From: an uncultured virus (IMG/VR IMGVR_UViG_3300006802_000088)
Lineage: Duplodnaviria > Heunggongvirae > Uroviricota > Caudoviricetes
Reading direction: 5' to 3' (one strand)
Virus record (IMG/VR): IMGVR_UViG_3300006802_000088
DNA length: 64,000 nt
The first letter of the stretch is position 1; each line of letters begins with the position of its first letter. A model generated the notes under the pieces. The model made no database searches. It saw only the letters and a program-made list of their open reading frames with translations, and had not been told where the DNA came from. Positions 1,049-62,061 of this stretch are shown one piece after another. A program made the position numbers and the translations under genes.

Positions 1049-1397
1049 AATTGAAAACAATATTGTCCAAGATGTTATTGTTGTAAGCAATGACGTTTGT
1101 GGTTCTGAATTCCCAGCAAGCGAACCTGTTGGTCAGGAATTTATTGCTAATGTTTTGAAATTGGACGGAGAATGGAAGCAAACTTCTTACAATCATAATT
1201 TTCGCAAACATTATGGCGCACCTGGGTTTACCTATAATCAAGAAGTTGATATTTTTATTCCCCCAGCACCTTTCCCATCTTGGCACCTCGATGAAGAATA
1301 TAACTGGAGGGCGCCAACACCGATGCCTTCTGATGCGTCAAGTACTATCCGTTATTACTGGGATGAAGCAAATCAAGTTTGGGTCTCGGCTGATTAG
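1032..1397 (+). CDS. Conserved phage hypothetical protein (tail-fibre associated)
   Basis: MAHFAKIENNIV...WKQTSYN...FIPPAPFPSW...WRAPTPMP..YYWDE pattern, commonly seen next to phage fibre genes. Confidence 0.7.
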   Translation: MAHFAKIENNIVQDVIVVSNDVCGSEFPASEPVGQEFIANVLKLDGEWKQTSYNHNFRKHYGAPGFTYNQEVDIFIPPAPFPSWHLDEEYNWRAPTPMPSDASSTIRYYWDEANQVWVSAD

Positions 1398-1993: not shown

Positions 1994-2017
1994 AGTATTT
2001 ATAGTAAAATTATTTTT

Positions 2018-2770: not shown

Positions 2771-2772
2771 TT

Positions 2773-3252
2773 TTATTTATTAAAAAACCAATGGTCTGGT
2801 GTTACGTAATGACAAAACATCATTTCAACAAATTTATTTTCTCCAAATTGTTTTGGAATTCTGCCATGAATTTGCTCATTTCCCAAATAACATAGAGCTT
2901 CATTTGGTTGTAAAATATATTCAATATTTTCAACCCACAAACCCCATGGCTCGGTTTGGCGAACACACAAATCTATTGTGTATGTGCAGGCATTATCGTC
3001 TTTATGCATTTCCAAAGACGCATTACCAAAATATTTACAAAATAATGAATAAGATTTAATTAAGTTGTCTAATTTAAATATTTCTTGCGCTATTGGTTCT
3101 AATAGTTTTGCATATTTTGTTGTTGTTTCTGTCTCTATCATATAACGAGACCGAGCCCGGTCGTATAGGCCTAGTTCGGCATTTGGTAGATTATTAATCA
3201 ATTCTGAATAATGCATCTCCGATAGCACATTTTTTATTATTAATGGACGCAT
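2773..3252 (-). CDS. 2OG-Fe(II) oxygenase-like protein
   Basis: LEMHKD...YTIDLCV...IHGR...FCHYV; HxD...H triad. Confidence 0.7.
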   Translation of the reverse strand: MRPLIIKNVLSEMHYSELINNLPNAELGLYDRARSRYMIETETTTKYAKLLEPIAQEIFKLDNLIKSYSLFCKYFGNASLEMHKDDNACTYTIDLCVRQTEPWGLWVENIEYILQPNEALCYLGNEQIHGRIPKQFGENKFVEMMFCHYVTPDHWFFNK

Positions 3253-3258
3253 TAAAAA

Positions 3259-3849
3259 TTACCACCAATTTACAATGCAATATTTGATACCATTTAAAAC
3301 AGGTTTTGCTTCGTGCGTAAATGGTGCCCCTGAAGGAAAAATTACTATATCTCCAGCAAAAGGATAATAAGTAAAATTTATGTCTTTAAAATATAATTCT
3401 CCGCCTTCAAAATCATCATTTAGATATCCAATTACGGAAATAGACCTTCTGGTTTGGGGGCCATCATCTAAGTGGGGAACATAAAATTCATTAATTGAGT
3501 ATTTTAAAACCTGATAACCAGTAGTTAATGCTTCATTGAACGCAACACTAAACCTGCCAGCAAAATCACTTACATAAGGTAAAAAAATTTTATGAATGTT
3601 GTTTGCAAATAATAATTCTGGGCTTGTTGGTCCTGATTCATAGTTTGGTTTTGGTGTAAACATCATTGCATTATTGCGTATTGATTCGGAAACAGTGTTT
3701 GAACCATCCATGTTCACTACACTAGCTTTTATAAAAGAAGCATTTGCCTCATTGGTATTAGACATCAATTCTGATGCTTCAATAATTTCGGTTTGAATCT
3801 TTAAAGCATTTCTATAAATACATATACCATTAACAATTATTGGTTTCAT
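3259..3849 (-). CDS. Prolyl-4-hydroxylase-like 2OG-Fe(II) oxygenase
   Basis: YVPHLD...RSISVIGYLNDDFEGGELYF...FPSGAPFTHEAKPVLNGIKY. Confidence 0.85.
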   Translation of the reverse strand: MKPIIVNGICIYRNALKIQTEIIEASELMSNTNEANASFIKASVVNMDGSNTVSESIRNNAMMFTPKPNYESGPTSPELLFANNIHKIFLPYVSDFAGRFSVAFNEALTTGYQVLKYSINEFYVPHLDDGPQTRRSISVIGYLNDDFEGGELYFKDINFTYYPFAGDIVIFPSGAPFTHEAKPVLNGIKYCIVNWW

Positions 3850-25323: not shown

Positions 25324-25851
25324 TTAATCCTCTTTCTTTAGTACTCCCCAATCTACTTTCTCTAAAGCAGATAAATTGACATCTGGCCATTTATGTTCAG
25401 AAAGACCCAAATATGAAAGGCCCATTTGCTCCAGTATCCACGCATCGCATTTGTCGTCCGCCCCTGGGTTCCCCCAGACTATTCCGGTTCGAGCGGATAT
25501 GGCTGAAATTACTTCGTTTTTTGAGGCGTTGCCACGTCCTGTAGCAAATTTGGCTCGACATGTAGGCGGTATCTCTATATATGACTTATTTATTTTTTTT
25601 ATTGCAACTCGAACAACCCCTCCAAGTTCGCCTATAGAAAAAGCTTGACCACTTCGTGATGCGAAAGAATACCCTTCTATCAAAACAATATCAACATTTA
25701 AATTTAAAATAGTTTTTATTATGTTTTCAGAAATTTCAATTAGTCTTTCAACTCCAGTAAGTTTAGATGTAATAACACCATTTGCGCTTCCACAAGAATA
25801 GCCAGTAGAAGTTAGGGATAAATCAAGACCCATTAAATTAAGTTTGCGCAC
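25324..25851 (-). CDS. ruvC: RuvC-like Holliday junction resolvase
   Basis: GLDLSLTSTG, IEGYSF, GELGGVVR, KFATGRGNASK, DDKCDA. GTG start lies 7 nt after TAGTAT (leaderless). Confidence 0.85.
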   Translation of the reverse strand: MRKLNLMGLDLSLTSTGYSCGSANGVITSKLTGVERLIEISENIIKTILNLNVDIVLIEGYSFASRSGQAFSIGELGGVVRVAIKKINKSYIEIPPTCRAKFATGRGNASKNEVISAISARTGIVWGNPGADDKCDAWILEQMGLSYLGLSEHKWPDVNLSALEKVDWGVLKKED

Positions 25852-25877
25852 AAAGCACATACTAGTATTTCTGCTAA

Positions 25878-25916
25878 AGCAAAAACCCACCAAACATCCA
25901 GCATGCTTGGTGGGTT
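25878..25916 (-). terminator. Intrinsic terminator
   Basis: AACCCACCAAGCAU-GCUGG-AUGUUUGGUGGGUU-UUUGCUUU. Confidence 0.8.
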
Positions 25917-26026
25917 AATCTAAAAGTAGCGGCCAAAACTGGGAACTACTTTTCAGAATTTATTGCCGCAAAATGCTGGATTTAGGACCACCGCCTTTCT
26001 TCCTCTTAAGGTTGATGTCGGCTGGA
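25878..26026 (-). ncRNA. Candidate structured small RNA (RNA2) with 16S-3'-tail-complementary segment
   Basis: TGnTATGAT -10 at 26038-26033, no plausible ORF, internal hairpin 25953-25922, 14-bp terminal hairpin 25916-25884 followed by a U-run. Confidence 0.55.
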
Positions 26027-26089
26027 AATTAAATCATAACATTTAATTAAAAAGAAGTTTAGTAAAGTAATTTTTTTTAAAAAAAATAT

Positions 26090-26155
26090 CCTATTACACG
26101 CAAAAGCCGAGTGGAGGACCCACTCGACCCTTGCGCCTATAACGGCCCTAAGGTA
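26090..26155 (-). ncRNA. Candidate small RNA (RNA1) antisense to 23S rRNA H69-H70
   Basis: TAAACT -10 at 26166-26161, then UACCUUAGGGCCGUUAUAG and a 17-bp hairpin that pairs fully only on the minus strand (4 G-U pairs). Confidence 0.55.
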
Positions 26156-26210
26156 TTATCAGTTTACTATTTAGACAAATACTAAAAGTGTAAAGGTATT
26201 AATTTTTAAT

Positions 26211-26552
26211 TTAAAGACCAAGACCCCTTTTAGCTAAACCTAAATCAAAAGCTAATTGTGGGTTATTGCCGATTCTTATGTGGCAGGGCCTGCAAACTGC
26301 AAGCACGTTATTTTCATCCAATATCGAACCACCCTGAGAGCGTCGAACAATTTCATGAACATCCCTGCTGAGGTGTTGGTTAAATGTGGTTTTGCCATCA
26401 TGTGCAGCAAATGGCTTACAGGCTTCGCAAAGAAAACGTTCTTTTAAAATTTTCTCAACGAACGGGCGACGTTTTTCGTAGAGTAATTCTTTTTTAACAC
26501 TACGTTTACGTAGGGGTTTTCTTTTTTTAGGGGGTTTTGGATTTTTTTGCAA
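26211..26552 (-). CDS. HNH-family nuclease-like protein
   Basis: CEAC...DVHEIVRRSQGGSILDENNVLAVCRPCH. Confidence 0.75.
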   Translation of the reverse strand: MQKNPKPPKKRKPLRKRSVKKELLYEKRRPFVEKILKERFLCEACKPFAAHDGKTTFNQHLSRDVHEIVRRSQGGSILDENNVLAVCRPCHIRIGNNPQLAFDLGLAKRGLGL

Positions 26553-26585
26553 GCCAAGACCTTTCCTGTGAGGACGAATTAGTTA

Positions 26586-27119
26586 CTAAAGTGTATCAAT
26601 ACCAATATCGTCAAATAACCACTTATTCTCCAAAAGCGCCCATAAGGCTCGGTCTACGGCCGTGTCTTCTAGGTCAAATTCTCTTAGCAGGGACCTGTGG
26701 GCAGAAATGCCTCGCTTTAAAAAATCAACTTCTTGCCAACCATCACTTACCAGCATTTCTTTGCCCGTCTCTATCATGACGGTAACTTCATCAAGGCGTC
26801 TATCAACATGAAATTTAAATCTTTTAATCTTCATCAACCTTGCCGCGTATGCAGATTTAGCTTCTGCTGCAAGACGTCGACCAGTAGGGCCCATTGATTC
26901 ATATCTAGTTTTATCAATTTCGGCATCTTCCTCAATTGATTCAATTTGGTCTTGGATGTTGTTGGAAAGAGCGACTAGGGCCGTTTGCCATCTACCCCAA
27001 TTGTCTTTGTTTAAAAGTTCTTTTTTATGCAATGGGGAAATTTTATTTTTAACGTCTTCTGCAACTATTCTTGCAAATGAATCATCATTCATCATTTTGT
27101 ACCACTCCACGCTGGACAT
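26586..27119 (-). CDS. Hypothetical protein
   Basis: 177-aa ORF in operon; start uncertain. Confidence 0.6.
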   Translation of the reverse strand: MSSVEWYKMMNDDSFARIVAEDVKNKISPLHKKELLNKDNWGRWQTALVALSNNIQDQIESIEEDAEIDKTRYESMGPTGRRLAAEAKSAYAARLMKIKRFKFHVDRRLDEVTVMIETGKEMLVSDGWQEVDFLKRGISAHRSLLREFDLEDTAVDRALWALLENKWLFDDIGIDTL

Positions 27120-32861: not shown

Positions 32862-35800
32862 ATGCCCTCGATGCAGAATGCGGAAATACAATACAAAGCC
32901 AGTGCGGGCACCTTCAATCTCGACGAGGCTCAAGGCATTGTCGAGTGTTTTGTTGCGGGTATTGGAAATAAGGACTCGGTTGGCGATGTTTGCGCAACTG
33001 GAGCTTTTGCTAAAAGCCTTCTAAGAAGAAAACCGCGTGTGGTGTGGGGCCACAATTGGAATGACCCAATAGGTAAGGTTTTGGATATTTACGAGGTTCC
33101 AGCAAGCGACCCTCGTCTACCAATGAAGATGAAAATGGCTGGTATTGGCGGCCTTTATGCAAAAGTTCAATTTAACCTTCAATCAGAGAAGGGCAGAGAA
33201 GCTTTTGCGAACGTTGCCTTCTTTGGCGAAGAGCAAGAGTGGTCAATCGGCTACAAAACACTAAGAGCCCAATACGACCAAAATATGCAAGCCAACATTC
33301 TCTATGAGGTTGAGCTTTATGAAGTCAGCCCTGTTCTGCATGGGGCCAATCAACTCACTGGAACAATTTCAGTTAAAAACGACTCTGGAAAATCTGACAC
33401 GATTGAACGTGCAGTATTTGCTTCTGGGCCTATGCAGGAAGCTGTAAACGTTACCCCTATTGCGTCTCGAGAAAATAATACAGAAGACGATTTACTACAA
33501 AAAATATCTAGCGAATTAGAAAAAAGAACAGCATCAAAAATAAAAATTGTATCTCTTGATAAAAACTCAGTTGTTTTTGATAGGCAAACAAGTGATGGTC
33601 TTGTTTCTAAGTACATGTGCAAATATCACTATGACGGTCAAGAGTTAATGTTCGGGCAACCACAAAGAATAGTTATTCAAAAACCAAACATTAATCCATC
33701 AATAGTTCCTTCTCAGCAGGGTAAACCAACCATGCATGGAAGAGTAACAAAACCAGTGCCTGTTATGCCAATGCCCGTAGCAATTAAGCCTGGAGAAAAC
33801 GGTCCTATTTCCATACCTTTGCCTGTTGTTGTTTATGAAGATTCTTCAAAAAATAAACCAACCACACCAAAGCCGCTAGACAACGAAGAGCAAGCTTTGG
33901 CTGATGCGCTTGTTCGTATAACCAAAAAATACGGCAAGTTCAATGAAGATAAAAAAGGTGTTTACGCGGCCTATACACCAGCGGCAGAAAATGAATTAAT
34001 CAATATTGGAGTTAAATGTTCTAATTGCATTTTCTTTAAGGGAGAAGGTTCTTGCAAGATTATAGATAAAGCCGTCGAAGCCGATGGTCGCTGTAGGTTC
34101 GCAGTTATTCCGCCAGGTGTTGTTGGGGGAAGCGCTATAGATAAAAAAGAATATAACGATTTCTTGGATGAAGAAGAAGTCAAATGGGTCGAAGATATTG
34201 AAGAAAAATATCCAGGCGAATTTATTTTTGGAGTGTTGAGGAACATAATAAAGAGACGCAATAAAAAACGCAAAAAATATAAAGAACTAAATGAATTTGA
34301 TGCGGAAGAATACGCAATCAAGGAAAAAACTTTAGCTTCAGGAAAAGAAAAATTCTTTTATATCCCTGTTGATGTGGAAAATGCTTTTGAAGTAAAATCT
34401 TTACTGGACGCAGTACTGGACCACCATAGGGTTGATTCGTTTGTTGATGAATATGGAATTGTTTTAACATCCGGACTAACAGCCGAATCAGTCGATGCAA
34501 TAAATATTGCAGTAAAAGGCATTGGGACAAGAATAGGAAAAAGAATTGGCAGCAGTCTAATCGATAGACCGAGAATCGGTGACAGAAGAAGCCTTGGTGA
34601 CAGAAGAAGAAAGCTTGGTGACGGAAGAATTGACATACCTACCGGCGGTATGCGTGGCACAAAAAAACCAACAGGAAACCGTCGTGACGTTGATGGTGAT
34701 GGTTGGGCTGATGAAGGCACCACGAACCCAGTATGGGTTGGTCTGCCTTCGGGTACAGACAAAAAACCCACACCATCAGGTACTGGTAAACCCAAAAAAC
34801 GCACTCCAATCTGGGAGCAAAATCGTCGCCCAAGCCCACCAGTCCCTTCGCGACCCAGAGAGTTGTCGGATGACAAAAAACCAGAATCACGTCGGACACC
34901 TCCTCCGGCTCCCCCAAAACCAAAGCCTACAAAAACCCCATCTTCACCACCTCCACCCCCTCGCAAAAAAGAAAAACTATCTTCAGGCACAAAAGATATT
35001 ACTAGACATCGTTCTGCCAAGAAACTAAAAAATCCAGCCGAAGACGCAAAAGAAACAGACTTTGAAAAGATTGCAAATTCATGGCGCGAACAAGGATTGG
35101 GTTGGGTAGAAATTCCGCGATACCCGGCTGACAAAAAACTAAGCAACGATTTCTTGCGCGGCAGGGAACTTGGGTACAACCAAGTAAGAGTGATGTGGAA
35201 TGGTTCGGGCACCTATAAGCGGCCAGCCAATTTTAACGAGAAAGCAAAATCTTCGGTTGAATATAGGACTTGGTTTTTGAACACAGCTAAAACTGCTGGC
35301 GAATACATAAAAAACAGCCGTAAAAGCAGTAATACGAGCGAAGCAGAGAAGGAAATAAATTTTGGCATTCCCGAAGGCATAGAAAACTTTTTGGATGCAG
35401 TGAAGCCAAATGTCTCTGGCTTGAGCATGAACGACAGAAAAGAATTTTTTGGTGCACTAATTCAATATAGGTTAGTACCAGAGAGAGACATATTTGGCGG
35501 AGATTATGGCCTCAGAGGTGCATACGTATACCCTAAAGCCATAGAACCTAAACCAAGCAAAAAACTCAGCAGCGGCAGAAAAGTACCATTCCCTGAAGCA
35601 AAACCAAAGCGCACATCAAAACAGCAACGAGATGACGAAAAAATTTACAAGCGTCGCAACGACGGAGAGTCTCTCGCCGATGTTGCTGAAAGCCTTGGTC
35701 TTTCTCGCGAGGAAGTAAGAAAACGTGAGCAACGACACATGCGTCGTCTTCGCAAAGAAGAGGGCGAAAGACTAAGTGAAGATTCAAATCGTTCCGGTGA

Positions 35801-38800
35801 AACACTGTCTTCTGGACGACGAGAGTACGAAGACAAATCAAAGACTTCGGTTAAAAACATGCCGGCAGATGTTCGGGCGTTTCTGAACCAACAAATCGAA
35901 TCCCAAAGAAAGATAAACAAAAACTCAGATGTTGCAAAACTCTATGAAAAACTTAGAGATGGGTTTGAGTTGGACGCCAAAGAGCGAGACTTCATTATCG
36001 ATTCCCTTGACCGAATTGAAAAACTTTCTACGCAAGACAGCCGCGTATATACCCCTGGACAAAGAGCTTCAGCAAGAAGATTAAATGCGCTTTTGAATAA
36101 AGACAACCCAAATTTCCGGGCCCCCAAAGGAACAGAGTTAAGAGACCTTGATGTTCCTTTGCGTATGGGGGAAGGCGGAAAACTATCTTCTGGACGCGAG
36201 GGCCGAAATCCATTTTACGAGGGTATGCGCGGAATGGATTTCATAAACACAATGAACGGCACTCCGGAAAATTTAAATTTCGAACAAGCTTCAAGAAGAA
36301 GTGACGATATAGGCGCCAACTTTAGGTATTTGCGCGACGCTAAACGTGGTGATTCTTTTGAATTTGAATACAGGGGGAAAATAGTAGAGGTTCACCCTGA
36401 ACCAGGTGAATCTGTTTATTCCACTATGCGACGCCACGAAGATGGGTACTTGTATTTTGTCGGCAGAGCGAAAAGGTCAATTAATCGGGATACCGGGAAA
36501 GAGGAGTATAACGATGGGGTCAACAAAGATGAAAAACCTAGTACTTTTAGGCTAGATTCAATTAATGGTTTGATTTTAGGGGCAGACCATGCTGATAATT
36601 ACTATAAAGAGGGTTACGACCCAATAAACGACAGATTTGTTGACATAGAAGAACAGAGAATCGCTGCACGAAAAGGTCCAAAAAAACTATCTTCTGGACG
36701 TAAAAAAAAAGGGAAGATAACTAAACGTAAACCATTCTCCCCTGAGGACCGACAAAGATTTGCTGACGGAGACCGGTTAAAAGCCAGAACAATTCCGGGC
36801 AAAAAGAAGCCTGGCCCAAGTATTGATGAATTCAGATTAAGCAGTGGATACGGCGGAGGGTCGAGACCTGCTCGTCGTCTTGCTCAATTGAATCGCCGAG
36901 AAGTTGAGCAAATCTATATTCAAGAATCTAGGGGCATGGAAGAACAGGCTAAAAATCTTTTAGCCAATCTCAAAACCCCATCGTTTGACGAAAGCCTTGA
37001 AAAAGGTTCAAAATTAGAGACCATTCGTGGAAATCTCAAGAAAGCATTCACAACTCCAGCGCTTGTTGGTTCTCTGTCGGATAATAAAAACAGAAAAAAA
37101 GACGGACCATGGATGCTTTCGTTTGAAAAATTAAGACCCCTTTTGAGAGACTCTAAGGGCGAACCAATGTCCGATGAAAACATTAAAAAAATGTTTAATC
37201 TCAATGAAGACGAAATGAAAAAATTGCTAGGGAAAAACGGCGCAATATCGTCTGCTTCTGTTCAGTCGTATTTGACTGCACATTCAGATACTAACCTGCC
37301 CGGCGAATCAGATGGACTAATCAGAAAAGTTTGGGGATTTGATTCTGCCCCATACTGGTATGACGGCCTAGAAGATAATAAGCCAGTAAGTCGTGAGGGT
37401 TATGACGCCGCCAAAGACGAATCAACCTTTTTGGCTGCCATCTACCCCTTGGATGCACCTATAGATTTTAAGACTTCAACCGAAATAGATGAAGACGCTC
37501 TTCCTAAAAAGAGAGAAATAGTTGTTGCAGAAGATGTAAAGCGCTCAATAGAAAGCGTGAAAGGAAAAGAATCTAAAGAGGCCTACAGTCTTGACAAGTT
37601 AATTGAAAAACTTAATATGCCAGCTGATTCAGGAAAAAATCGAGAAGAAATAGCTAAAGCTTTTGAGAAGTTACTAGGGGTCCCAACTAGCGCGGAACAA
37701 TTATTTACTTCTCCAGGTTCATGGAGAAGAAATGGTGTACCAACAAATGTGATTTTAGAATTAAAAAAACGTAAGCACATTACTAGTGCTGCCGACGTTT
37801 TTGGTAGTGATGAAGCCAAAAACTTTGACAAAGCAACAGAACAAAATAAATTCTTTAGTGCTTTAGATAATCTCCTAAGAGCAAATGGGATACAAATAGG
37901 AGGAGGTAAGGGCAATCTTTCGGACAGAGTTATTGGTGAAATTATGGGAGACGCTATTGGCTCTAAGCCTTTGGCAAAAATAGGTCGAGCCTTTAAAAAG
38001 GCTGGAGAAGAAAGGCCTTTTACTTACAAAGTGGGCGCCGCTGTCGTTTGGACTCCAGAAGAAATTCAAAAAACTCTTGATGGAATTAATAGAGTAACAG
38101 GAAAAGATTTTAAAGTTTCTGACCTCAAATTAAGTAGCGGCAAATTCGGTAAAGGTGAAAGAAAAGTAACACCAAAATTATCTTCAGGCAGAACTGGGGC
38201 TGAGTCTTTTTCAGCGAACGAATCAATTAACAAAATTGACGAAAGATTGCGTACAGCCAAAAAAAGAGGCTCAAAAGTATTTAATGAAATGCTTCGAGCA
38301 GAAAGTAAAAAACAAAGTTCTCAAAAAGCAAAACCGAATCCACTAGACAAAATGAAAGATGGTGAACGTCTTTCATCGGGCAAACTTGATGAAGTTTATA
38401 AGTCAATCACTCAAAAATTAATTAAAGCAATAGAGACTGCTGATGGAGATAAGTGGGAAGCTCCTTGGTACAAAGTTGGTGCATTCCCTAAAAATCCAAC
38501 CAATAAAAACCGTCCATACTCAAACACAAACTTATTGTTCCTGTTAATGGCGCAAGAAGATAAGGGATACACGAAACCATATTGGGCAACATATAAGCAG
38601 TGGGAAAAATCTGGCGGCCAAGTCAGGGCTGGAGAAAAAGGAACCAAAATTCTCGTCCCAAGAGTTTACAAAGCAAAAGAAGATGATGAGGGCAACAAGA
38701 AAGGCGGCGGAGTATTTTATTCAGTTGCAACGGTATTTAATGTCGACCAAGTAGATGGCGTAGATGTTGAGGAGATGGAGAATAAATTTCCAAAACTTTC

Positions 38801-41800
38801 AGAAGAGCAAAGAGTTTCTCAACTTGAAAGCGCTATTAAAGAAATAGGTGCAAAGATTACCGAAGCCGAATCTGATAGGGCTTACTACAGTCCATCAAAA
38901 GATGAAATAGTTCTACCAAAATTTGAAAATTTTAAATCTCCTTTGGATTTTTACGCGACTCAAGCTCACGAATTAATGCACTGGACCGGACACACATCAC
39001 GTCTAAATAGACCAAACATGAATTATTTTGGTAGTCCAGAATACGCATACGAAGAATTGGTAGCAGAAATTGCTTCTGCTTTCTTTATGGCAGCACATGG
39101 TCTCTCCGCGGAGCCGCAGCCACAGCATGCGATGTATCTTGCTTCATGGCTTAAGCGACTCAAATCAGACCCTGATGCTCTGCAAAAAGCAGTTTCCGAT
39201 GCACAAAAAGCTGTAAATTTCGCCATCAAACTGTCCCCGAGCATGAGTAAACAAATGGCCGTATCAGAAAACGTAGATGACGTGCCTGGGATAACGGTCC
39301 CCGACACTGGCGGCAAGTTGTCGTCGGGTAAAACTCCTGATTTACCTGCTCTTACTAGGGCGCTCGAAAACGCAGGGCTTGCTGAATCAGTAACCGAAAA
39401 TATGATTACTGAAGCTATTAGTGTATGGAAGGACAACCCTTCGCTACATAGGCAATATATTGAGCGTCTTGACGGAGATGTTAATGGCGCAGTGTTCTCT
39501 CTCTATAACGATTATCTCGAAGATATGTTTGACCGCTCTCCAGAGGGAGCCGCAAAAATAGAACGCGAGCTTGATGAACAATATGAAGCAACACAAAGCC
39601 TTTCGTCAGGCAGACCATCAAAAAGACTTTCGCGTCGACTAAAAGATGATGAATCATCAAAACTTTCATCTGGCAAGCAACCATGGGATGACCCCGCTGT
39701 ACAGAAAAGATTAATAGACGGTGCAAGAACAAAAAAGAAAACCAAAGCCGATGGTAAAACCGAAAGTTACATGGCAAGCATGGTTAGACAATTTGACGCA
39801 GGGAAAAAACTGACAGACAATCAGTGGAAACCTCTGTGGGAAAGCTTCGGCGGCGAAACCTCGGCCACGAAACCAAGCACACCGTCGACTGCATCAACAA
39901 GTAAAGCCCTTAAGCCATTTAGCGGCCTTAAGCGTAAAGAAATAGACCTGTCTGATGTTAAAAAATATGATTACCCAACGACTGATGCTAAAGGAAAGAA
40001 AAAACCACTTCCGACAGAAGAGCAATCAGATGCGATAGATGCAATGATGACCGGCAGTGACGTTAAGGTTGCCGCATTAGCCGCAACCGGTAAAACTACT
40101 ACGGTAATCAATTTTGCAAATCGACTTCTAGATGAAGAACCTGAATCAAGAATTCTTTATTTAGTATTTAATAAAAATGCTGAAAGAGACGTTGTAAAAC
40201 GTGGCATGCCAGAAAACGTAACAGTCAGAACAATGGACGCAGTTGCCTTCCGCGCCATGAAAACAATTGATTCGAAAATGACTGACAAAAGTTTTAATCC
40301 ATCAATAAAACCAATCAAGTCTTTCCGAGATAGAGCGGCATATCTTGGTGTCAAGAGAATGGTGTCTCGGGGAGACGAGCTAACATCTGCCGATGTTGTG
40401 AAAAGAATAGCAAAAGCCGTAGAACATTTTTCGATTAGTAGCGATACGGAAATCGGACCAAAACATTTTAATGGAAAATTTAATGGAAAGCTTGCTGTCG
40501 ACGATGATGCAATACTCCCGGAATTAGTGGCACTTGCCAACAAGTACTGGAAAGATATTAAAACTCCACGAGATGGAGTTGCTGGAATGTTGCCAGTCAA
40601 TAACACACATATTACAAAAATGTGGGCTTTATCAAAGCCAGACATAGGTTCATCAATGGGTGTAAATATCGCAATGGTCGATGAGGCGCAAGATATGAAC
40701 CCGGTTTTTGCTGAAATTTTACAAAAAGCAAATAAGGTGCAAAGAATATATATAGGCGATACAAACCAGGCCATAAATGCTTGGCGCGGCGCGGATGGAC
40801 AGACTCTTGTCGACGCTTCAGCTAAATACACAATGCCAATAACTGATTCGTTTAGATTTGGTAAAAATATTGCAGGCATAGGCAATAGATTTCTTTCGCT
40901 ACTTGGAGCTAAGGAAAAAATGAATGGTCGGAAAGTGGATAAATCCGGCAACCCGGTAGATGGGCTTATTGGGAACGTAGAAAATCCAACAATGATTCTT
41001 ACTCGCTCAAATGGTGGAGCGATGGCCGCAACGATGAAGAGTTTTGAAAAAGGCCTAACCGTCTATGGCAGCAAAAACTTCAAAGAAGATTTAACAAAAT
41101 TTATTGACAATGTTGAATACATGGAAACATCCGCTAATGGCAAAAAAGGTTATTACACCAGCGCTGATGGTAGAAAAATCTATGAAAGACCATCAATGAG
41201 TCAAGACCTTGATGGCATCAGCAATATTAAAGAATTTAAAGAAGCAGTGGAAAAGGGTGATGATAATAGGCTAAATATGCTTAACAAGCTGTTGAGCGAA
41301 CATGGCGTTGAAGAACTTCGAGATGCCCTTGGCAGAATCATAACCGATGAAAAAAAATTACCCAAAAACCGTGATGAATATGTTCACATACAGACAGCAC
41401 ATACGTCTAAGGGTCTAGAGTCGCCCAGAGTCCAAATATGGAGCGATTTTGCTAAACCCAAAAAAGCTACCGATGGCACAAACATCACAATAATGCCCAA
41501 CGAGCAAGAGCTCAGACTTTCTTATGTGGCGGTCACCAGGGCTGAAGAAAAACTAGATTTGGGTTCTTTGTCGTGGATTTATAATCATACGAGCGACGAG
41601 GATGGCGCATCGAACAAACTCAGTTCCGGCGCAAACTTGTTGATGCCGAGACTTTCTGGAACACTTTCGAACGCCATAATTAATTCAACACCGGCGGCTC
41701 GTAAAATGAGGAAGGAATGGAAAAAGCGCGAATCAATGTCTGGACACCCATCTAAGAGAAAGGGTATAAAATTAAGTTCCGGAAGATATCTTAATTTTGA

Positions 41801-42200
41801 ACGAATATTGTCTTCGGATGAACTTGATGACAACCTAGAACCAATTAGGGGGCCTTATGGGGACCCATATGACTCAATCCACCGAAAGCAAGTCAGATAT
41901 GCGGTTCGCCGTTTCAAACATACCGAATCCGTTCCAGTCCGTCAGCGTAGTACTGGGTTCCCTACTGGGCGTATGGTTGAAAGAACCAGGACATATTTCT
42001 GGATTGAAGACATGAAGACCAACCAAACCCCAGTATGGGCTTCGGGTATTTTTTACTACAGAAACCATCTAATAGGAAGATTACAATCACACCTAAATTC
42101 GTTGTCGGAAGACGAAAAAGCCGCACTAGTAAAAGAATACGAAAAAAGTGCCAAAACATTTACCCGTCGTACGAAGGATGAATTAAAAATTCCATCCTAA
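32862..42200 (+). CDS. HK97-type prohead protease fused to multidomain cargo (HTH, WYL-like, ArdC-N plus zincin metallopeptidase, UvrD helicase)
   Basis: N-term DSVGD...GAFAKSL...WGHNWNDPIG...EWSIGY...LYEVSPVLHGAN; later WATYKQW...VRAGEKG, HELMHWTG...YAYEELVAE, ATGKT/VDEAQD/GD.NQAI/TAHTSKGLE/YVAVTRA. Confidence 0.9.
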   Translation: MPSMQNAEIQYKASAGTFNLDEAQGIVECFVAGIGNKDSVGDVCATGAFAKSLLRRKPRVVWGHNWNDPIGKVLDIYEVPASDPRLPMKMKMAGIGGLYAKVQFNLQSEKGREAFANVAFFGEEQEWSIGYKTLRAQYDQNMQANILYEVELYEVSPVLHGANQLTGTISVKNDSGKSDTIERAVFASGPMQEAVNVTPIASRENNTEDDLLQKISSELEKRTASKIKIVSLDKNSVVFDRQTSDGLVSKYMCKYHYDGQELMFGQPQRIVIQKPNINPSIVPSQQGKPTMHGRVTKPVPVMPMPVAIKPGENGPISIPLPVVVYEDSSKNKPTTPKPLDNEEQALADALVRITKKYGKFNEDKKGVYAAYTPAAENELINIGVKCSNCIFFKGEGSCKIIDKAVEADGRCRFAVIPPGVVGGSAIDKKEYNDFLDEEEVKWVEDIEEKYPGEFIFGVLRNIIKRRNKKRKKYKELNEFDAEEYAIKEKTLASGKEKFFYIPVDVENAFEVKSLLDAVLDHHRVDSFVDEYGIVLTSGLTAESVDAINIAVKGIGTRIGKRIGSSLIDRPRIGDRRSLGDRRRKLGDGRIDIPTGGMRGTKKPTGNRRDVDGDGWADEGTTNPVWVGLPSGTDKKPTPSGTGKPKKRTPIWEQNRRPSPPVPSRPRELSDDKKPESRRTPPPAPPKPKPTKTPSSPPPPPRKKEKLSSGTKDITRHRSAKKLKNPAEDAKETDFEKIANSWREQGLGWVEIPRYPADKKLSNDFLRGRELGYNQVRVMWNGSGTYKRPANFNEKAKSSVEYRTWFLNTAKTAGEYIKNSRKSSNTSEAEKEINFGIPEGIENFLDAVKPNVSGLSMNDRKEFFGALIQYRLVPERDIFGGDYGLRGAYVYPKAIEPKPSKKLSSGRKVPFPEAKPKRTSKQQRDDEKIYKRRNDGESLADVAESLGLSREEVRKREQRHMRRLRKEEGERLSEDSNRSGETLSSGRREYEDKSKTSVKNMPADVRAFLNQQIESQRKINKNSDVAKLYEKLRDGFELDAKERDFIIDSLDRIEKLSTQDSRVYTPGQRASARRLNALLNKDNPNFRAPKGTELRDLDVPLRMGEGGKLSSGREGRNPFYEGMRGMDFINTMNGTPENLNFEQASRRSDDIGANFRYLRDAKRGDSFEFEYRGKIVEVHPEPGESVYSTMRRHEDGYLYFVGRAKRSINRDTGKEEYNDGVNKDEKPSTFRLDSINGLILGADHADNYYKEGYDPINDRFVDIEEQRIAARKGPKKLSSGRKKKGKITKRKPFSPEDRQRFADGDRLKARTIPGKKKPGPSIDEFRLSSGYGGGSRPARRLAQLNRREVEQIYIQESRGMEEQAKNLLANLKTPSFDESLEKGSKLETIRGNLKKAFTTPALVGSLSDNKNRKKDGPWMLSFEKLRPLLRDSKGEPMSDENIKKMFNLNEDEMKKLLGKNGAISSASVQSYLTAHSDTNLPGESDGLIRKVWGFDSAPYWYDGLEDNKPVSREGYDAAKDESTFLAAIYPLDAPIDFKTSTEIDEDALPKKREIVVAEDVKRSIESVKGKESKEAYSLDKLIEKLNMPADSGKNREEIAKAFEKLLGVPTSAEQLFTSPGSWRRNGVPTNVILELKKRKHITSAADVFGSDEAKNFDKATEQNKFFSALDNLLRANGIQIGGGKGNLSDRVIGEIMGDAIGSKPLAKIGRAFKKAGEERPFTYKVGAAVVWTPEEIQKTLDGINRVTGKDFKVSDLKLSSGKFGKGERKVTPKLSSGRTGAESFSANESINKIDERLRTAKKRGSKVFNEMLRAESKKQSSQKAKPNPLDKMKDGERLSSGKLDEVYKSITQKLIKAIETADGDKWEAPWYKVGAFPKNPTNKNRPYSNTNLLFLLMAQEDKGYTKPYWATYKQWEKSGGQVRAGEKGTKILVPRVYKAKEDDEGNKKGGGVFYSVATVFNVDQVDGVDVEEMENKFPKLSEEQRVSQLESAIKEIGAKITEAESDRAYYSPSKDEIVLPKFENFKSPLDFYATQAHELMHWTGHTSRLNRPNMNYFGSPEYAYEELVAEIASAFFMAAHGLSAEPQPQHAMYLASWLKRLKSDPDALQKAVSDAQKAVNFAIKLSPSMSKQMAVSENVDDVPGITVPDTGGKLSSGKTPDLPALTRALENAGLAESVTENMITEAISVWKDNPSLHRQYIERLDGDVNGAVFSLYNDYLEDMFDRSPEGAAKIERELDEQYEATQSLSSGRPSKRLSRRLKDDESSKLSSGKQPWDDPAVQKRLIDGARTKKKTKADGKTESYMASMVRQFDAGKKLTDNQWKPLWESFGGETSATKPSTPSTASTSKALKPFSGLKRKEIDLSDVKKYDYPTTDAKGKKKPLPTEEQSDAIDAMMTGSDVKVAALAATGKTTTVINFANRLLDEEPESRILYLVFNKNAERDVVKRGMPENVTVRTMDAVAFRAMKTIDSKMTDKSFNPSIKPIKSFRDRAAYLGVKRMVSRGDELTSADVVKRIAKAVEHFSISSDTEIGPKHFNGKFNGKLAVDDDAILPELVALANKYWKDIKTPRDGVAGMLPVNNTHITKMWALSKPDIGSSMGVNIAMVDEAQDMNPVFAEILQKANKVQRIYIGDTNQAINAWRGADGQTLVDASAKYTMPITDSFRFGKNIAGIGNRFLSLLGAKEKMNGRKVDKSGNPVDGLIGNVENPTMILTRSNGGAMAATMKSFEKGLTVYGSKNFKEDLTKFIDNVEYMETSANGKKGYYTSADGRKIYERPSMSQDLDGISNIKEFKEAVEKGDDNRLNMLNKLLSEHGVEELRDALGRIITDEKKLPKNRDEYVHIQTAHTSKGLESPRVQIWSDFAKPKKATDGTNITIMPNEQELRLSYVAVTRAEEKLDLGSLSWIYNHTSDEDGASNKLSSGANLLMPRLSGTLSNAIINSTPAARKMRKEWKKRESMSGHPSKRKGIKLSSGRYLNFERILSSDELDDNLEPIRGPYGDPYDSIHRKQVRYAVRRFKHTESVPVRQRSTGFPTGRMVERTRTYFWIEDMKTNQTPVWASGIFYYRNHLIGRLQSHLNSLSEDEKAALVKEYEKSAKTFTRRTKDELKIPS

Positions 42201-44077: not shown

Positions 44078-47000
44078 ATGACGGGGAAGCCGTTTCGCAA
44101 AACAAGAATAATAATTTCAGACAAATTAATATCTGCTCGCACCGAGATTAAAAATACTGATTCTTCTGCGCATTTTTTTAAAAATGCCGTTTCTGAATCA
44201 ATGAGTTCACCTCGCCTTGACGCCGATTTAGCCATTAAAAGCTTGGGCTCGAGTATTGGTTCAAAGAAAAAGCCAACATACGACAATACGGACAATAAGA
44301 CCCGAACCAATTCAGGCGGCGAACCAGGAATGGTGGTCACCCCTGATGGCTATAGATACCAACCAAAAGAAAAAAATGGTCCAGGCAAAAAACTTGTTTT
44401 GTTTCCTTCGCAAAAAAGTCGAGAGTCAAACGGGAAAACTAGCAATTTCGGCTGGCTTGATAGAGAAAATACAAGCAGCATAAAAAACTATATTCAGCAT
44501 CAAAAAGAACAACCCCAAATAAGAATTAGAAAGTTTAAAGTAAATCCCAAGACGGACGAAATTATTCCTGGTTCAGACATAGAAATGTCTCCGTTCCGCA
44601 AAGATAATAATTCAGAAAACAATATTTCTGAAAAAATGCTTCCAGGAAGAACTCTTGGGTCAAGAGGAACATCACTAATAGGTAGGGCTGCAGGAAAATT
44701 CGGCATAGTAAGGGATGCTTTAAACAAGTTCAGATGCCCGCCAGGAACCCCAGCCGCAAACCAATTTACGGACCACATGGGAAGCAATTGCTTTGGTCAG
44801 TCAGCAGGAGACTTAGTTGACTTTGCGATAGACGCTTTTCAAGCAGCCCGCAAAGCTTTTACTGAACCAAACTCTCGAGAAACATTATCTAAATTTTTTA
44901 AAGAAGCAGCTTATGACGCCGACAATGGAAGATTTGGTTCTTTTTTTGCTCGGACAATGTGGCGCGATGCTGATGGAAACAAAATACGTAATTTACGTAA
45001 ATGGAACTCAGAACTAAGAGAAGGTGAATACAAAATATTTGCGGGAGGCATGGCAAATGCGCAGCTCGAACTTGAAGCTCAAGATAATCGAATAGCGAAT
45101 CTTCGTGACTTGCTGGGAATACCAAGCACCCCAGAAACAAGAAAAAATAACGACGACCTTCATGAAATATTTAGGATTTTAAAAGAGAGAGGAATGCTAA
45201 ACGTAACCCTTGGCAGCCCAAATCCCCAAGAAGAAGGAGAGGGACAACGACCTACCCCTGAGCAGGTAGCTCAAGTGGTTGAAGCAAGACTCAGGGCAGT
45301 ACCGGGATTTAGCGAGCTACCAAGAGAACAGCAAAAAAGAGTCATTGCAAATGATATTGAAAGATTCTACGAAACGGAACGAGCTTTGTTGGAAGGGTTT
45401 CTAGATGAATACGTCAAAAATCCAGAACATATGGGAACTATCAAAAACCTCATTTATGAATACAAGACGTCGCCGCCATTTAAATCGTTAGATGAAGCAA
45501 GCTATGACGCAAATGTCATAAACGGCCAAGCTATTGGTGAAATAAGAATTGATATTCCTTTTATAATGTATTCACAAGAAACAATGCTGCCTCAACTGGC
45601 AGATAATGAAAGACTAAGAATTGATGTTGTTGGCGCAAAAACCGATTCTGAAGCAGCTAAACATCTTGGCGATTTCTTATTAACTACTGCCCAACATTCC
45701 AAGCAACATGCGGCAACGGTCGAAGAAAGAGGGTTTGCACGACACATAATTAAACACGAAATAGCACACTCAATTCAGGCCAGGGCGTTCTTTGATGAAG
45801 CCAAAAGACAAATTAACGAAAATGGTTTCATATCAATTGGGGATAAAAAAATTGAAAGCCTAGATAAATTAACTGGTTCAGATTTGATTAGCCTCATGAG
45901 CCAATCAGCTGATTCCATCAATCTTGAACAACTCAGCAAGGCTTTATCAAGAACAGAAAATATTATGTTCATGGCCGGGGAATACCCTCGAGCCTACATA
46001 AGCGAAGGTCGTGAGCTCACGGCAATTGAAGCAACAGCAGAGCTTTGGGCTCTAAGAAACGCAGGGCTGATTTGGGGCGACGATGTTGATGCCGCTCTTG
46101 AGTGGATGGACAATATAGCTGATGGACGAATCGGAGAAAAAAGGGTTCGCTCCGATATGGAAACAATGAGAATTGTTGAAGATTCATATTATCTAAGCCC
46201 TGGCGAGTCTTCTGCTCCTTGGTACGTACCAGAAGACCCAGTTGCTACAGCTGCGGCGAAAAAACGAGCAGAAAATAAAGCGCTTAAAGCTTCTATTGAA
46301 AAATTAGACCATGACACAATTATTGACGAACTTGCGCAACTCGAATTTAAAAAAGATGAAATTAATTTAAAAATCAATGCTGCAAAAGCCATAGGTGAAG
46401 ACGTTTCTGATTTAGAAAAACAATTATCAGAATTGAAGAGTGATGAAAAAATTATTCGTTCTGTATGGAAAAAGAAATATGGTACCGGCTCCGAAGACGC
46501 TACGGCTCTCAAGCTATTAATTAAAAAAAGAAGAGAAGAACATGGTGCATTTACGCCAGACGTTCTTGAATCAAAAATTCGTGACAAAAAAATAATGGCA
46601 GCAAAAGCCGATGCGGCGACTATAGACAGCTTGGACGAATTGGTGGAAATGATGGCGGCTTATGACTTGGACATAAGACTTGCAACCAGCGATAAAGACA
46701 AAGGATTAAAGCGTGAAGAAAGAAAGGCATACCTTAGTCGATACCGAGCACTCCTTGATAAATCCGGCGACTCTCGTAGTTGGGTTGAGCAAAAGCGTGA
46801 AATGGAAGAAAAAATAGACAGAATTCTTAGGCCTACGAAGACTGCGCCACTCAAAAAACCCAAAACCCCAACAACCGATAAGCAAGCTACAGATGTGGGT
46901 AATAAAGCAAGAGAAGAAGCGCTACGCACAGCTACGCCTAGACAAAGAATTGCGGTTTCAGAATTTTCTGACTCACAAACATCGTCAGTGGCTCAGTTGT

Positions 47001-50000
47001 TTGATGCGGAAAAAAGGGATTTAGCTCTTGCTGGCATGAAGGAAAGAAATCAAAGGCTAAAAAAACAAGGCCTCAAAATCGACCCTACATTACGAGGTGA
47101 GGCGTCACCCGAAGAGCAGGTCGAAAATATTCTTATTCCAACAATGGAAATTATCGACAAATCCAGAATTGGCACAAACCTAGAAGTAGAGGCAGAAATT
47201 GAAGTAGATGTCAATGACGTTACTGGGGAAATTTCGCTTTCGGAAATTACGCATGACTCATTTATAAGCGGACGTGTTTTATCTAAGAAAAATCCATTTT
47301 CTGTAGATTCAAAAACCAAACCTCCAGTTAATGGAAAACAAAAAAGAAAAATAATAATTCAAACCACCGAAGAAGATAGAGGTATATTCCCTCATTGGTC
47401 AATGGATGTTGACAAAGATGATAAGCGCCCACAAAAGCTAGTTTTACCTCCAGGCAAGTTGAAAGTCGTAGAAATACGAGACGACGGAACAGTAATCGCT
47501 CAAATATCTGAACAGAAAGATACTGAATCAGTGTTAGATACCTTGGTCGCTGCTGATATTAAAGGAACCAGGTTTCGTTCAGTTGCCGACAGGTACATAG
47601 TTGAGCGTAGAGAAAACAAAATCCCACGCGAACAAAAAAGACCACTAAAAGCGCAAGAAACCCAAGACCGAGGAATTCTCGCCACTCGAGAATTAAAGAG
47701 AAGAGGTGGACGTTTTGGTCAAGGTCTTGATGATGACGACATAGATGAATCGTCTTCAAAACTTTCTTCTGGCAAGATTCGCACCAGAATCCAGGTCAAG
47801 TCGGAAAGAATTAAGACAGAAAAAGAAAACATTGCAGACGTCAAGGCTGTTCTCACAGGTAATGAACCAACTAAATTCAAATCACTTTCTCGTGACTCCT
47901 TGGACCCAGAGGTGGCTGAATTAATTATAAAAAACGAGCCAGAACAAATCATCAAATTAGTCGAAGACGCTGCAGTTGAACTACATAACAGCATGGATAA
48001 AAGAACAAGAGTCAGAATGAGGGAGTCCGAACTCAATAATTTTGTTTCTTCTGGTACTTACAATCCAAGATTGCAAGCAGAAACAGTTCTGGATTCAGAA
48101 TCAAAGCCAAATAGCAGGCTAAAACGCAGGATTAAGGACTTTAGGGATAAGGCAAAACAGGCTGCCGCCGCCCAGGGGGCCAAAGATGAATTCAGAAAAT
48201 TAAAAGAAGCAAATCTAGGCAACGGCGAACTACATAAACTGGATGATGCAACATTAATGAGCAACCTTGGCCTAGAACGCTCAAAACAAAAAAGTGTTAT
48301 TTCAGATAATCCAATATATAGAACAAACTCTGCCGAACAAGCAATTGCTTTGTTGGCTCTTGGCTATGAAGTAGAAGTTCCAGACAGAGCCGAACGAAAG
48401 ATGGTCAAAAATGCAGCGCTACAAACCGAAAAAGAACTTAAAACTCTTGCCGGAACAGAAGCTGACAGTCTTGGATTATCTGGTGACGAAAAAGATAAAT
48501 ACATTAAAAATTTTATGGAAACGCACGATATAGACCTTTGTGGCTTATATGAGGTCGGACGAAATCTCTTTTGTAACGAAAACATTGGAGTCAATCGTGA
48601 ACACATGCCACAGAGCGGAGGTCCCACTAAGGGAGCCAATTCACCAGCGATGAGGGCTTTAATATCTGGCCATGTTGGCGGTGAGTATAAGGATGCCTTT
48701 AACCCTTCTTTGTCTAAAGAAGATAAGGAACGATATTTGGCAATAGTGAAAAATCTGGGAAATCCTGACAAGTTTGCGAGCGTTAGTGAAGAAGATAAAA
48801 AATGGGCATTCGACAATACTGTTTGGAGCAAAGTCGAGGTTGCGACAGAACCCGAATTGATAAAATTTCTAAAACAAACCCTTCCTGGTGGAGAAGACTC
48901 AATCGTCCGTAAGTCAAAAAATCCAGACGACCTTTTTGCATCACAAAAACAATTAAAAAATGCACAAATTGATAAGACTGCTGAAAACATTTACGACCAA
49001 TACATGGCCGCCAGAGACAAGTGGGGCAAGCCGGGGACTGAAGAATTTATTAAAAATCGTCAAAATTTTTTGGATTCAAAAGAGGCATGGTTTCAGGGGG
49101 CAATACTTACGTCAAGGGATGGGTATGTAGTTGACGGACATCATCGATGGGCTGGCATCAAAATGCTTAATGACCATTTGCCAGAAGATGAAAAAATTCA
49201 AGTTCAAGTAAACGAATTGCAAACATCTATTTTTGAAGCCCTGACTTTAGCAAAAGTATTTCAAGAACATATGGAAATTAAAGGAAAAACTGTAGGAAAA
49301 GTTGTTCCTTATGAGGATGGCGAAACCAAGCCAATGTCCAAAGCAGATTTTGATGAACATATGGCGCTATTAAATAATCAGATAAAAGAAAAAATTCAAG
49401 AAATAAAAGACAAGAACATCTATCCAATTAAAGTCAAAAATCTTGCAGCCAATAACGAACCACGTTCTCCGGGTCTCAAAGATAGTCGCGACAGGTCTGT
49501 GCGAATATACGGCATGGAGTGGAAGCCGGAATACTCAGAGAACCAGGCACTTGAGGCATCCAAGAAATGGGATGGGTGGGATGATGTTCCGCTTACGGAA
49601 ATTGATTTGTCATCAGAGATTCGTCCAACCGAATCCCACTTAAAAGGTTCAGCAATAGATAGCGTTGTTTCCGGCGAAGTTCCTTTTAGAGAGGGTTATC
49701 ATCCGCATATCGTCATAGACGTTGATGGGAAAATGTATGTGTCTGATGGACACAATAGAGTTGCCATGAATCGTGCTTTAGGGAATCAGAAAATACAAGC
49801 ACGAGTAGTCGACCTTCGAAAAGTTGATGCACCATGGGGGGCGGTAGACCCAAGTAAGAAAAATTACAAAGGCTACGACCTTGTCGACCCACCAAATCCT
49901 TTTCCAAAGGATGGCACATATCCGGTCGAGATAGTGGAGGCAGCTAAACAGCAACGAGAAAAGATAGAAAAAGTAGAAAAAGAAATTACGGAAACATTAA

Positions 50001-62038: not shown

Positions 62039-62061
62039 ATTAAGGTTTAATTAATAATAAT

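Follow-up and report, generated by a model that had tools for sequence, protein, structure and literature searches.

The window analyzed here is a stretch of 64,000 nucleotides (nt) from an uncultured tailed lake phage (IMG/VR record IMGVR_UViG_3300006802_000088). In a gap of ~360 nt it holds two small RNAs, RNA1 and RNA2, with an HNH endonuclease gene upstream and a RuvC-like gene downstream, all on the minus strand. Comparative evidence identified RNA1 as a real RNA gene of the minus strand. It is widely conserved and consists of a seed, complementary to positions 1914–1932 of the 23S ribosomal RNA (rRNA), and a hairpin. In the open reading frame (ORF) list of the window, no ORF of at least 30 amino acids (aa) crosses the RNA1 region. 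The rRNA complementarity of a conserved phage RNA gene suggests that the virus may act on host ribosomes directly with RNA.

On the plus strand, the 19-mer CTATAACGGCCCTAAGGTA (26137–26155) equals positions 1914–1932 of the Escherichia coli 23S rRNA in 18 of 19 positions, the only difference being a C in place of T1923. As reference we used E. coli K-12 rrlH, fetched by accession. The minus-strand RNA of the same segment, UACCUUAGGGCCGUUAUAG, is the antisense of 1914–1932 and can form 19 contiguous pairs with it, one of them G-U. Both the 18/19 match and the full minus-strand pairing had been proposed in an earlier sequence-only reading of this DNA, and both were borne out against rrlH. The proposed target, 23S positions 1914–1930 (to 1932 for the window), lies in helix 69 and just past it: it takes in the 3′ half of the loop, then the 3′ strand of the stem and the linker toward helix 70. 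Helix 69 forms the intersubunit bridge B2a. The predicted seed–target duplex has about −30 kcal/mol, and the local fold of the target region about −10 kcal/mol.

The 19-mer occurred only once in the window, with three mismatches permitted and on either strand, and in 0 of 100 shuffles. From 64,000 positions and 9,132 rRNA 16-mers (both strands), divided by 4^16, we calculated 0.14 expected chance matches per window, close to the 0.1 estimated in the sequence-only reading. For one given 16-mer against either strand of 4,566 nt of rRNA, p is about 2e-6 (arithmetic). The segment that matches rRNA coincides exactly with the invariant, single-stranded seed, in antisense orientation.

The seed is followed without a spacer by a hairpin of 17 pairs (26098–26136, minus strand), with the arms GCGCAAGGGUCGAGUGG (26136–26120) and CCACUCGGCUUUUGCGU (26114–26098) and the loop at 26119–26115. 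The U-rich stretch CUUUUGCGU is its 3′ arm. Four of the pairs are G-U, as had been noticed from the sequence. The hairpin is probably a terminator or a stabiliser of the transcript, and a run of eight T, 11 nt past it (26079–26086, minus strand), marks the furthest likely 3′ end of RNA1 in the window. The −10-like hexamer TAAACT (TAnnnT; 26166–26161, minus strand), also recognized earlier, lies 5 nt upstream of the 19-mer and 8 nt upstream of CTTAGG. Across 76 distinct units the TAnnnT keeps a fixed distance from CTTAGG, with T at −13 in 56, A at −12 in 60 and T at −8 in 59. Because of this fixed distance, the seed is likely at the RNA1 5′ end, to within about 2 nt. A further element, TTTACA (26189–26194, minus strand), is found 22 nt before the hexamer. 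Its columns are moderately conserved (T at −40 in 63 and C at −37 in 45 of the 76 units), and it may be a −35-like element or a regulator site with unusual spacing. With start and end that we infer from these elements, RNA1 would be about 55–80 nt long.

Folding of positions 25870–26215 gave −103.9 kcal/mol for the minus strand (z −5.7) versus −87.7 kcal/mol for the plus strand (z −3.3). The structure was then assessed in an alignment of 38 distinct homologous RNA1 units. Hairpin pairs were standard in all 608 alignment cells, and 7 of 16 pairs had changes on both sides. None of 500 shuffles attained any of the five measures, and slid controls paired in 33–56% of the cells. G-U or U-G pairs occupied 152 of the 608 cells. 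On the opposite strand these would be A-C mismatches, and thus the selected fold is that of the minus-strand transcript. The pairing of the loop GGUCCU with AGGGCC of the guide, which had been proposed earlier, is limited to the window's own clade, most relatives having a GNRA-type or a quite different loop. Overall, the sequence-only reading had proposed a ~60-nt minus-strand RNA targeting the helix 69 region. Comparison supported the RNA, its −10 element, its antisense guide and its hairpin, and the targeting is suggested by the complementarity.

An exact search of viral contigs with the window 19-mer returned five close relatives and one unrelated contig (L003). The five are little informative alone, because they are ~97% identical across the whole gap. 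Loci were therefore gathered through the RuvC protein, independently of the seed: 80 viral loci (RuvC 51–100% identical) and 80 metagenomic ones, with some records in both sets. The RNA1 unit was present in 114 of these 160 loci. Its longest contiguous pairing with E. coli 23S 1914–1932 was 19 in 10 loci, 17 in 74, 16 in 18, 15 in 6 and 13 in 6, so that all 114 units pair over at least 13 and 102 over at least 16 contiguous positions. Among the 10 loci with 19 pairs, two (L245 and L267) had a perfect Watson-Crick 19-mer. The family-wide seed core is CUUAGG(A/G)CCGUUAUAG, antisense to 23S 1914–1929, and the commonest seed form, CCUUAGGACCGUUAUAG, carried by most relatives including distant ones, is the perfect complement of canonical 23S 1914–1930. 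By exact search, the 17-mer was found in at least 120 viral contigs. These contained 64 distinct units, whose hairpins shared almost no sequence (e.g., GCAGAUGCCUCUGGG... vs UAGAGAUUGCAUCUGAG...).

Across the 114 loci, no other part of the unit varies as little as the seed, and most conserved is its 16-nt core, while the hairpin sequence diverges between clades. In sequence comparison, a fixed seed with a drifting but still pairing hairpin is the signature of a base-pairing small RNA (sRNA). Conservation of the 19-mer in relatives had been named as a check of the sequence-only reading, and this is what the core and the perfect 23S complements of distant relatives provide. Many relatives have a T-run directly 3′ of the hairpin (e.g., L016, L052, L082 and L099). 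The covariance model R1 recognized one RNA1 copy in the window. With the same model, no second or seed-swapped copy was found in the window or in 13 viral loci lacking the core.

In three metagenome loci without RNA1 (L283:9–96, L290:9–96 and L300:8–95), a hairpin that resembles a terminator and leads into a U-run, GCGGGAGGGAGACCUCCCGC, lies ~500 nt upstream of RuvC. This hairpin matched the RNA1 model weakly (19–21 bits), and the 5′ stretch before it is AU-rich and unlike that of RNA1. In these loci, another small RNA may occupy the genomic position of RNA1.

Is the match a functionless relic of host rDNA, captured beside a terminator? Phages do pick up host fragments, and contig L003 also has a 24-nt 23S-like stretch. 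A relic would decay, yet here the seed is the part that varies least, in surroundings that have diverged. We consider this explanation very improbable and close to refuted. On L003, an unrelated IMG/VR contig of 204 kb, the stretch (L003:1463–1677) is intergenic and lies upstream of a tRNA cluster. Its ACTATAACGGCCCTAAGGTAGCGA equals 23S 1912–1935 in 23 of 24 positions, with the same C1923 as the window, and is followed by GTCGGG...GTTCCG, recalling helices 70–71. Folding did not tell the strand (z −1.4 and −1.7), and an exact-pattern search found no relatives besides L003 itself. The stretch may be another phage RNA related to this 23S region, sense or antisense.

Within the family, the window's G opposite U1923 is, from the comparison of seeds, a derived A to G change that keeps a wobble pair. 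A second wobble-keeping change is A to G opposite U1915. From these two events we had considered that seed substitutions are biased toward wobble pairs, an idea undone by three pair-breaking clades in the metagenomes. It had been suggested that the guide be compared with the helix 69 variant of the host, and we considered whether the G is an adaptation to a host with C1923. The target stretch is identical in E. coli and in nine of the ten rrl copies of Paenibacillus curdlanolyticus YK9. In a sample of 201 genomes from one phylum, that of the Paenibacillus genome, 69 had a match to a pattern allowing variants at 1916, 1919 and 1923. Among the ~150 matches listed, all were canonical except two with C1923. 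Many of the genomes without a pattern match are probably assemblies without rRNA genes. In a collection with one genome for each of 185,579 species, C1923 with a normal flank was found in four genome records only. The adaptation was rejected because C1923 is so rare, and the G is best taken as a wobble partner of U. P. curdlanolyticus YK9 itself (G002, loci L212–L221), one of these four records, has C1923 in one of ten 23S genes and T in the other nine; a second genome, G175, has the same pattern, with one of nine copies. The rare variant is thus a minority copy within its genome.

RNA2 (25876–26029, minus strand) is about 150 nt long; besides a conserved core it contains a hairpin that varies and the stem of an intrinsic terminator (25916–25884). 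A TTTACT-N22-TATGAT promoter-like site lies just upstream. In 24 aligned sequences, 6 of 17 predicted pairs had a compensatory change. Its core AGAAAGGCGGUGGUCC (25985–26000, minus strand) complements a 16S rRNA 3′ tail of the type GGAUCACCUCCUUUCU, a tail that was read from Paenibacillus rRNA operons. Against it, the core AGAAAGG-C-GGUGGUCC forms 14 Watson-Crick pairs, one G-U pair and one mismatch. With −26.4 kcal/mol it is the best duplex with the 16S tail among 5,114 phage windows of 75 nt, the next separate site having −23.1 kcal/mol. All 24 aligned relatives pair with the tail over the same core (−22.4 to −29.5 kcal/mol). The complementarity begins at the would-be last nucleotide of such a 16S rRNA. 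According to a study on mycobacteria, the 16S 3′ end lies there 11 nt past the C of C^ACCU, which fits the RNA2 complementarity (PMC12274833). A segment of RNA2, GGUCCUAA, had also been considered as 23S-like and was dropped in favour of the 16S-tail reading.

By eye and unscored, the 5′ UCCAGC of RNA2 (UCUAGCC in most relatives) is complementary to the terminator loop of the same RNA, GCUGGA (GGCUAG in relatives), with covariation of both segments from clade to clade. RNA2 thus appears to contain a pseudoknot. The promoter-like sites of RNA1 (26161–26194, minus strand) and RNA2 (~26031–26068, minus strand) also have in common, again by eye, the geometry TTTAC(A/T)-N22-TAnnnT instead of the usual 17-nt spacing. 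It may represent a phage-specific or host-lineage-specific promoter class.

We recorded the distribution of both RNAs in the 77 RuvC-anchored viral loci with enough upstream sequence. Both RNAs were found in 48 loci, RNA1 only in 18, RNA2 only in 3 and neither in 8. Because loci with only one of them exist, RNA1 and RNA2 are separate modules. Pairing between the two RNAs was rejected, since in 26 cognate pairs the duplexes reached only −8 to −14 kcal/mol, at inconsistent sites. Coincidence explains the rRNA matches poorly, because each of two neighbouring RNAs, conserved independently of one another, is complementary to a key single-stranded site in rRNA.

For the function of RNA1 we propose a trans-acting antisense RNA, to which we give about an even chance. 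RNA1 would be transcribed from its own gene on the minus strand, its first 16–19 nt being single-stranded and the stable hairpin behind them ending or stabilising the transcript. The free 5′ end would then base-pair with host 23S 1914–1930 (to 1932 in the window) and most likely mask helix 69, and with it bridge B2a, on free or still-assembling 50S subunits. As a result, fewer 50S subunits could join 30S subunits or finish maturing. Similarly, RNA2 would cover the anti-Shine-Dalgarno region at the 3′ tail of 16S rRNA. That the pairing takes place in the cell and affects the ribosome we infer, and the effect on the cell is the weakest link of the mechanism. An inhibitory effect is feasible, because a peptide nucleic acid (PNA) against helix 69 of E. 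coli 23S rRNA blocks translation and growth, as stated in a review (PMC12828698). In the window, no conserved RNA1 target was found inside the phage itself. The best sites there had −24.8 and −23.3 kcal/mol and dropped to −17.6 and −13.5 kcal/mol with the canonical seed, ten shuffled seeds attaining −18.9 to −22.7 kcal/mol. A broader view, of a two-part RNA system in which RNA1 clamps helix 69 and RNA2 clamps the 16S tail, so that the subunit pool is switched off, reserved or shielded, is tentative, and we hold it at somewhat less than even.

Several observations weigh against this mechanism. In the mature 50S subunit, positions 1920–1924 take part in the pairs of helix 69, whose loop contains modified uridines. 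Full RNA1 pairing would therefore need an open or immature target. Pair-breaking seed changes were found in three minor clades (12 of the 114 loci), where they break one to three pairs: a U to C change opposite A1916 (6 loci), in which an A at −2 extends the pairing to U1931, giving 15 contiguous pairs; a U to C change opposite A1919 (3 loci), with 18 of 19 positions still pairing; and two changes at the 5′ edge (3 loci), leaving 13 contiguous pairs. Substitutions in homologues had been named as a possible refutation. In the other 102 loci at least 16 pairs are kept, and overall the seed substitutions have no bias toward kept pairs. The RNA1 unit is dispensable or accessory, eight of the 77 viral loci having neither RNA. 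In 18 of the 77, there is no T-run past the hairpin and the RuvC start follows about 35–50 nt on ("short-type" loci); in these, the unit could be part of the RuvC mRNA 5′ leader. Of two RNA runs, the second had no matches and the other (X20), a metatranscriptome, contained 19% of the sampled words, its contigs covering only 26315–26593 (the HNH gene). No RNA1 transcript was among the contigs of these RNA libraries, and such contigs cannot show absence. The phage itself uses Shine-Dalgarno (SD) sites: sites binding the anti-SD at −6 kcal/mol or better were found at 51% of 59 predicted phage starts versus 12% of 2,000 random sites. Finally, an unselective ribosome inhibitor would harm the phage, which needs ribosomes, and no mechanism of selectivity was found.

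The variant clades bear on an alternative in which RNA1 is a trans-acting sRNA with a host mRNA or another host RNA as its real target, the full 23S match being incidental or only ancestral. Classical seed-plus-terminator sRNAs reach their mRNA targets via 7–12 nt. In all three variant clades, only AGG(A/G)CCG plus two more positions are constant, which a short seed of this kind would fit. An mRNA target would not be expected to fix 16 contiguous nt across phages with RuvC proteins 51–70% identical and fully diverged hairpins. That the fixed 16-mer equals rRNA by chance has the probability of about 2e-6 given above, and the neighbouring RNA2 independently complements 16S rRNA. We regard an mRNA target as unlikely.

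A further alternative is a role in cis or at the DNA level, as leader of the RuvC mRNA, as 3′ end or terminator of the HNH mRNA, or as a DNA site for a protein or nuclease, such as an I-CeuI-like homing site. The unit is always found between HNH and RuvC, without an intervening T-run before RuvC in the short-type loci. It neighbours an HNH endonuclease gene, and the homing endonuclease I-CeuI has a DNA site of about 26 bp in the 23S rDNA, in the same universally conserved segment as the RNA1 seed. In long-type loci, including the window, a complete RNA2 with its terminator separates the unit from RuvC, and many units have a T-run at their end. The promoter-like hexamer at a fixed distance speaks for a separate transcript, and the G-U pairs and compensatory changes indicate selection on an RNA fold. 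Unlike in a copy of the I-CeuI site, the rDNA identity ends after 16–19 bp, short of the 26 bp of that enzyme's site, with different flanks and with evidence for an RNA of the antisense strand. An attachment or homing site in rDNA was rejected on this ground and because covariation at the RNA level speaks for a transcript; the scan of 59 window proteins showed neither an integrase nor a LAGLIDADG domain. There is one unit per genome, and HNH and RuvC occur together without it in five of the eight loci lacking both RNAs, directly abutting each other in L047, L078, L085 and L086. A cis or DNA-level role seems to us rather unlikely. Guides of the CRISPR or OMEGA type (CRISPR RNA, single-guide RNA, IscB/TnpB omega RNA) were also considered and rejected: only the pairing of the hairpin is conserved, not its sequence, and both enzymes encoded at its sides, HNH and RuvC, are small, belong to ordinary phage families and also have adjacent genes where the RNA is absent.

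The phage's own need for ribosomes leads to the main rival of the masking mechanism, a protective effect. Pairing of RNA1 with 23S and of RNA2 with 16S rRNA would hide these sites from single-strand-specific nucleases, such as MazF-type abortive-infection toxins or ribosome-decay RNases, and the ribosomes would be kept for the phage. According to the study cited above, MazF-mt11 is single-strand specific and cuts mycobacterial 16S rRNA at C^ACCU, which removes the anti-SD and stops translation (PMC12274833). The predicted RNA2 duplex covers exactly this site and reaches the last nucleotide of such a tail. Further in favour of protection, the nearest cultured relatives infect actinobacteria, and the patchy distribution of the RNAs (48/18/3/8 of 77) is typical of anti-defence accessory genes. 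MazF-mt3 reportedly has dual rRNA substrates and MazF-mt6 is said to cleave 23S rRNA. Against protection, the 23S site of these toxins, at ~1939–1943, lies outside the RNA1 duplex at 1914–1932, and we know of no toxin that cuts within 23S 1914–1930. Were the anti-SD shielded, SD-led genes of the phage itself would be blocked as well. Protection thus appears improbable to us, at about the level of an mRNA target. We also rejected the view that leaderless phage mRNAs profit from RNA1 and RNA2, as with the SD-like starts counted above the phage is not SD-independent.

The gene upstream of RNA1 (26211–26552, minus strand; 113 aa) encodes an HNH endonuclease (PHROGs phrog_15522, E 5e-10) and had no real Pfam hit. 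Downstream, the RuvC-like Holliday-junction resolvase gene (25324–25851, minus strand; ~170 aa) matched Pfam PF02075 and phrog_159 (E 3e-27). Its likely start is the GTG at 25851, 7 nt past a TAGTAT hexamer that lies directly 3′ of the RNA2 terminator (25849–25866 region). By eye, the positions of the GTG/ATG start and of the hexamer are kept in relatives. From this start position, the RuvC mRNA may be leaderless.

Other genes recognized in the window were those of a tailed phage: a terminase large subunit, a portal protein, a capsid protein, a baseplate J protein, a Rad52-type annealase, a PD-(D/E)XK/Cas4-type nuclease and ParB. Two giant ORFs encode 3,112 aa (32862–42200, plus strand) and 2,649 aa (44078–52027, plus strand). 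The first would give one polyprotein-like product with a prohead protease, a sigma-70 region 4, ArdC-N, a zincin-like MPTase and a UvrD helicase domain. Auxiliary-metabolism-like genes at 278–3849 and 61793–62859 encode a sulfotransferase, an Asp/Asn beta-hydroxylase-like protein, two 2-oxoglutarate-Fe(II) oxygenases, a TauD-family dioxygenase and a ferredoxin.

Near-identical DNA was found in runs of 16 freshwater, lake, river or aquatic studies, and the window's DNA may stem from four of these runs. The window had no BLASTN match among 50,697 phage records, and in the nearest virus record (G001) the RNA region was absent. The closest cultured relatives by terminase large subunit and RuvC are actinobacteria phages, with <45% identity. 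The likely leaderless RuvC start, the promoters of TAnnnT only and the ...CCUUUCU-type 16S tail implied by RNA2 would fit a Gram-positive host, perhaps an actinobacterium.

Proteins with which phages take over translation are known, among them modifying enzymes and homologues of ribosomal proteins, and phages also use small RNAs against mRNAs. A virus RNA that pairs directly with rRNA would, if true, be a new route of host takeover or counter-defence. In that case no natural RNA of a virus, nor one of any origin in the bacterial world, would have been shown before RNA1 and RNA2 to regulate translation through direct pairing with mature or nascent rRNA. A full-text search, outside of which most subscription journals lie, found no paper on a phage or bacterial sRNA pairing with 23S helix 69 or with the 16S tail. 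Nearly all bacteria share the target sequence and the 23S rRNA of E. coli is a perfect match, so that the mechanism is testable in E. coli. If it holds, the two RNAs would be a natural template for antisense antibacterials against helix 69 and the anti-SD tail, sites that have already been tried with PNAs. The family is abundant, with its 17-mer in at least 120 viral contigs and near-identical DNA in 16 studies of freshwater or other aquatic samples, and may matter for the killing or reprogramming of lake bacteria.

A comparison with known RNA classes began with Rfam 15, which gave only a tRNA in the window. Between 25500 and 26700, at E up to 10, there were only three chance-level hits far below the cut-offs, and in eight related loci Rfam recognized only tRNAs, all in L003. 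The box C/D and H/ACA guide RNAs known from archaea and eukaryotes (e.g., PMC6009581) are natural small RNAs with rRNA complementarity of 10–21 nt, a feature that they share with RNA1. Unlike in these guides, the complementary segment of RNA1 would be at the extreme 5′ end and not before a D box. Inspection of the alignment and the column table found no C/D or H/ACA motifs at conserved positions, and a CUGA upstream in the window is not kept in relatives. The C box reads RUGAUGA and the D box CUGA, together with a kink-turn. To our knowledge, no C/D or H/ACA partner proteins exist in bacteria.

Two other systems act on the ribosome itself. A tRNA-derived fragment reportedly competes with mRNA for ribosome binding (PMC5711459). 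Like the proposed RNA1 it acts on no single message. It is, in contrast, a cellular processing product on the small subunit, whereas RNA1 is a dedicated viral gene with a long 23S complementarity. Kulik et al. reportedly used a synthetic PNA against helix 69 of E. coli 23S rRNA, and a 2009 study is said to have directed a PNA against the 16S mRNA-binding site. Such PNAs share with RNA1 and RNA2 the same two rRNA sites, helix 69 and the 16S 3′ region, and plain antisense pairing. They are man-made, short and chemically modified, whereas RNA1, known here from sequence, is natural, virus-encoded and unmodified, with a structured 3′ part.

Closest in form are the trans-encoded base-pairing sRNAs of the RybB and OmrA/OmrB type, with a 5′ seed and a terminator hairpin. 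Phage-encoded sRNAs are described in two reports and a review (10.1101/2024.10.31.621285; PMC13502914; PMC12197685). Both groups resemble RNA1, itself a probably independent gene, in being small independent genes with a conserved, single-stranded 5′ end and a stable 3′ hairpin, often with a U-run, and the phage-encoded ones also in their position in a phage intergenic region. Of the features of the class, RNA1 has a stable, covarying 3′ hairpin and a single-stranded seed, its most conserved part, that has no conserved intramolecular partner. RybB, OmrA and OmrB pair with mRNAs through short seeds, whereas RNA1 would pair with rRNA through 16–19 contiguous nt that are fixed across divergent phages, with no known link to a chaperone and no phage mRNA target found in the window. 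The architecture of RNA1 is that of a classical seed-plus-terminator sRNA, and its proposed target class, rRNA, is not a classical one.

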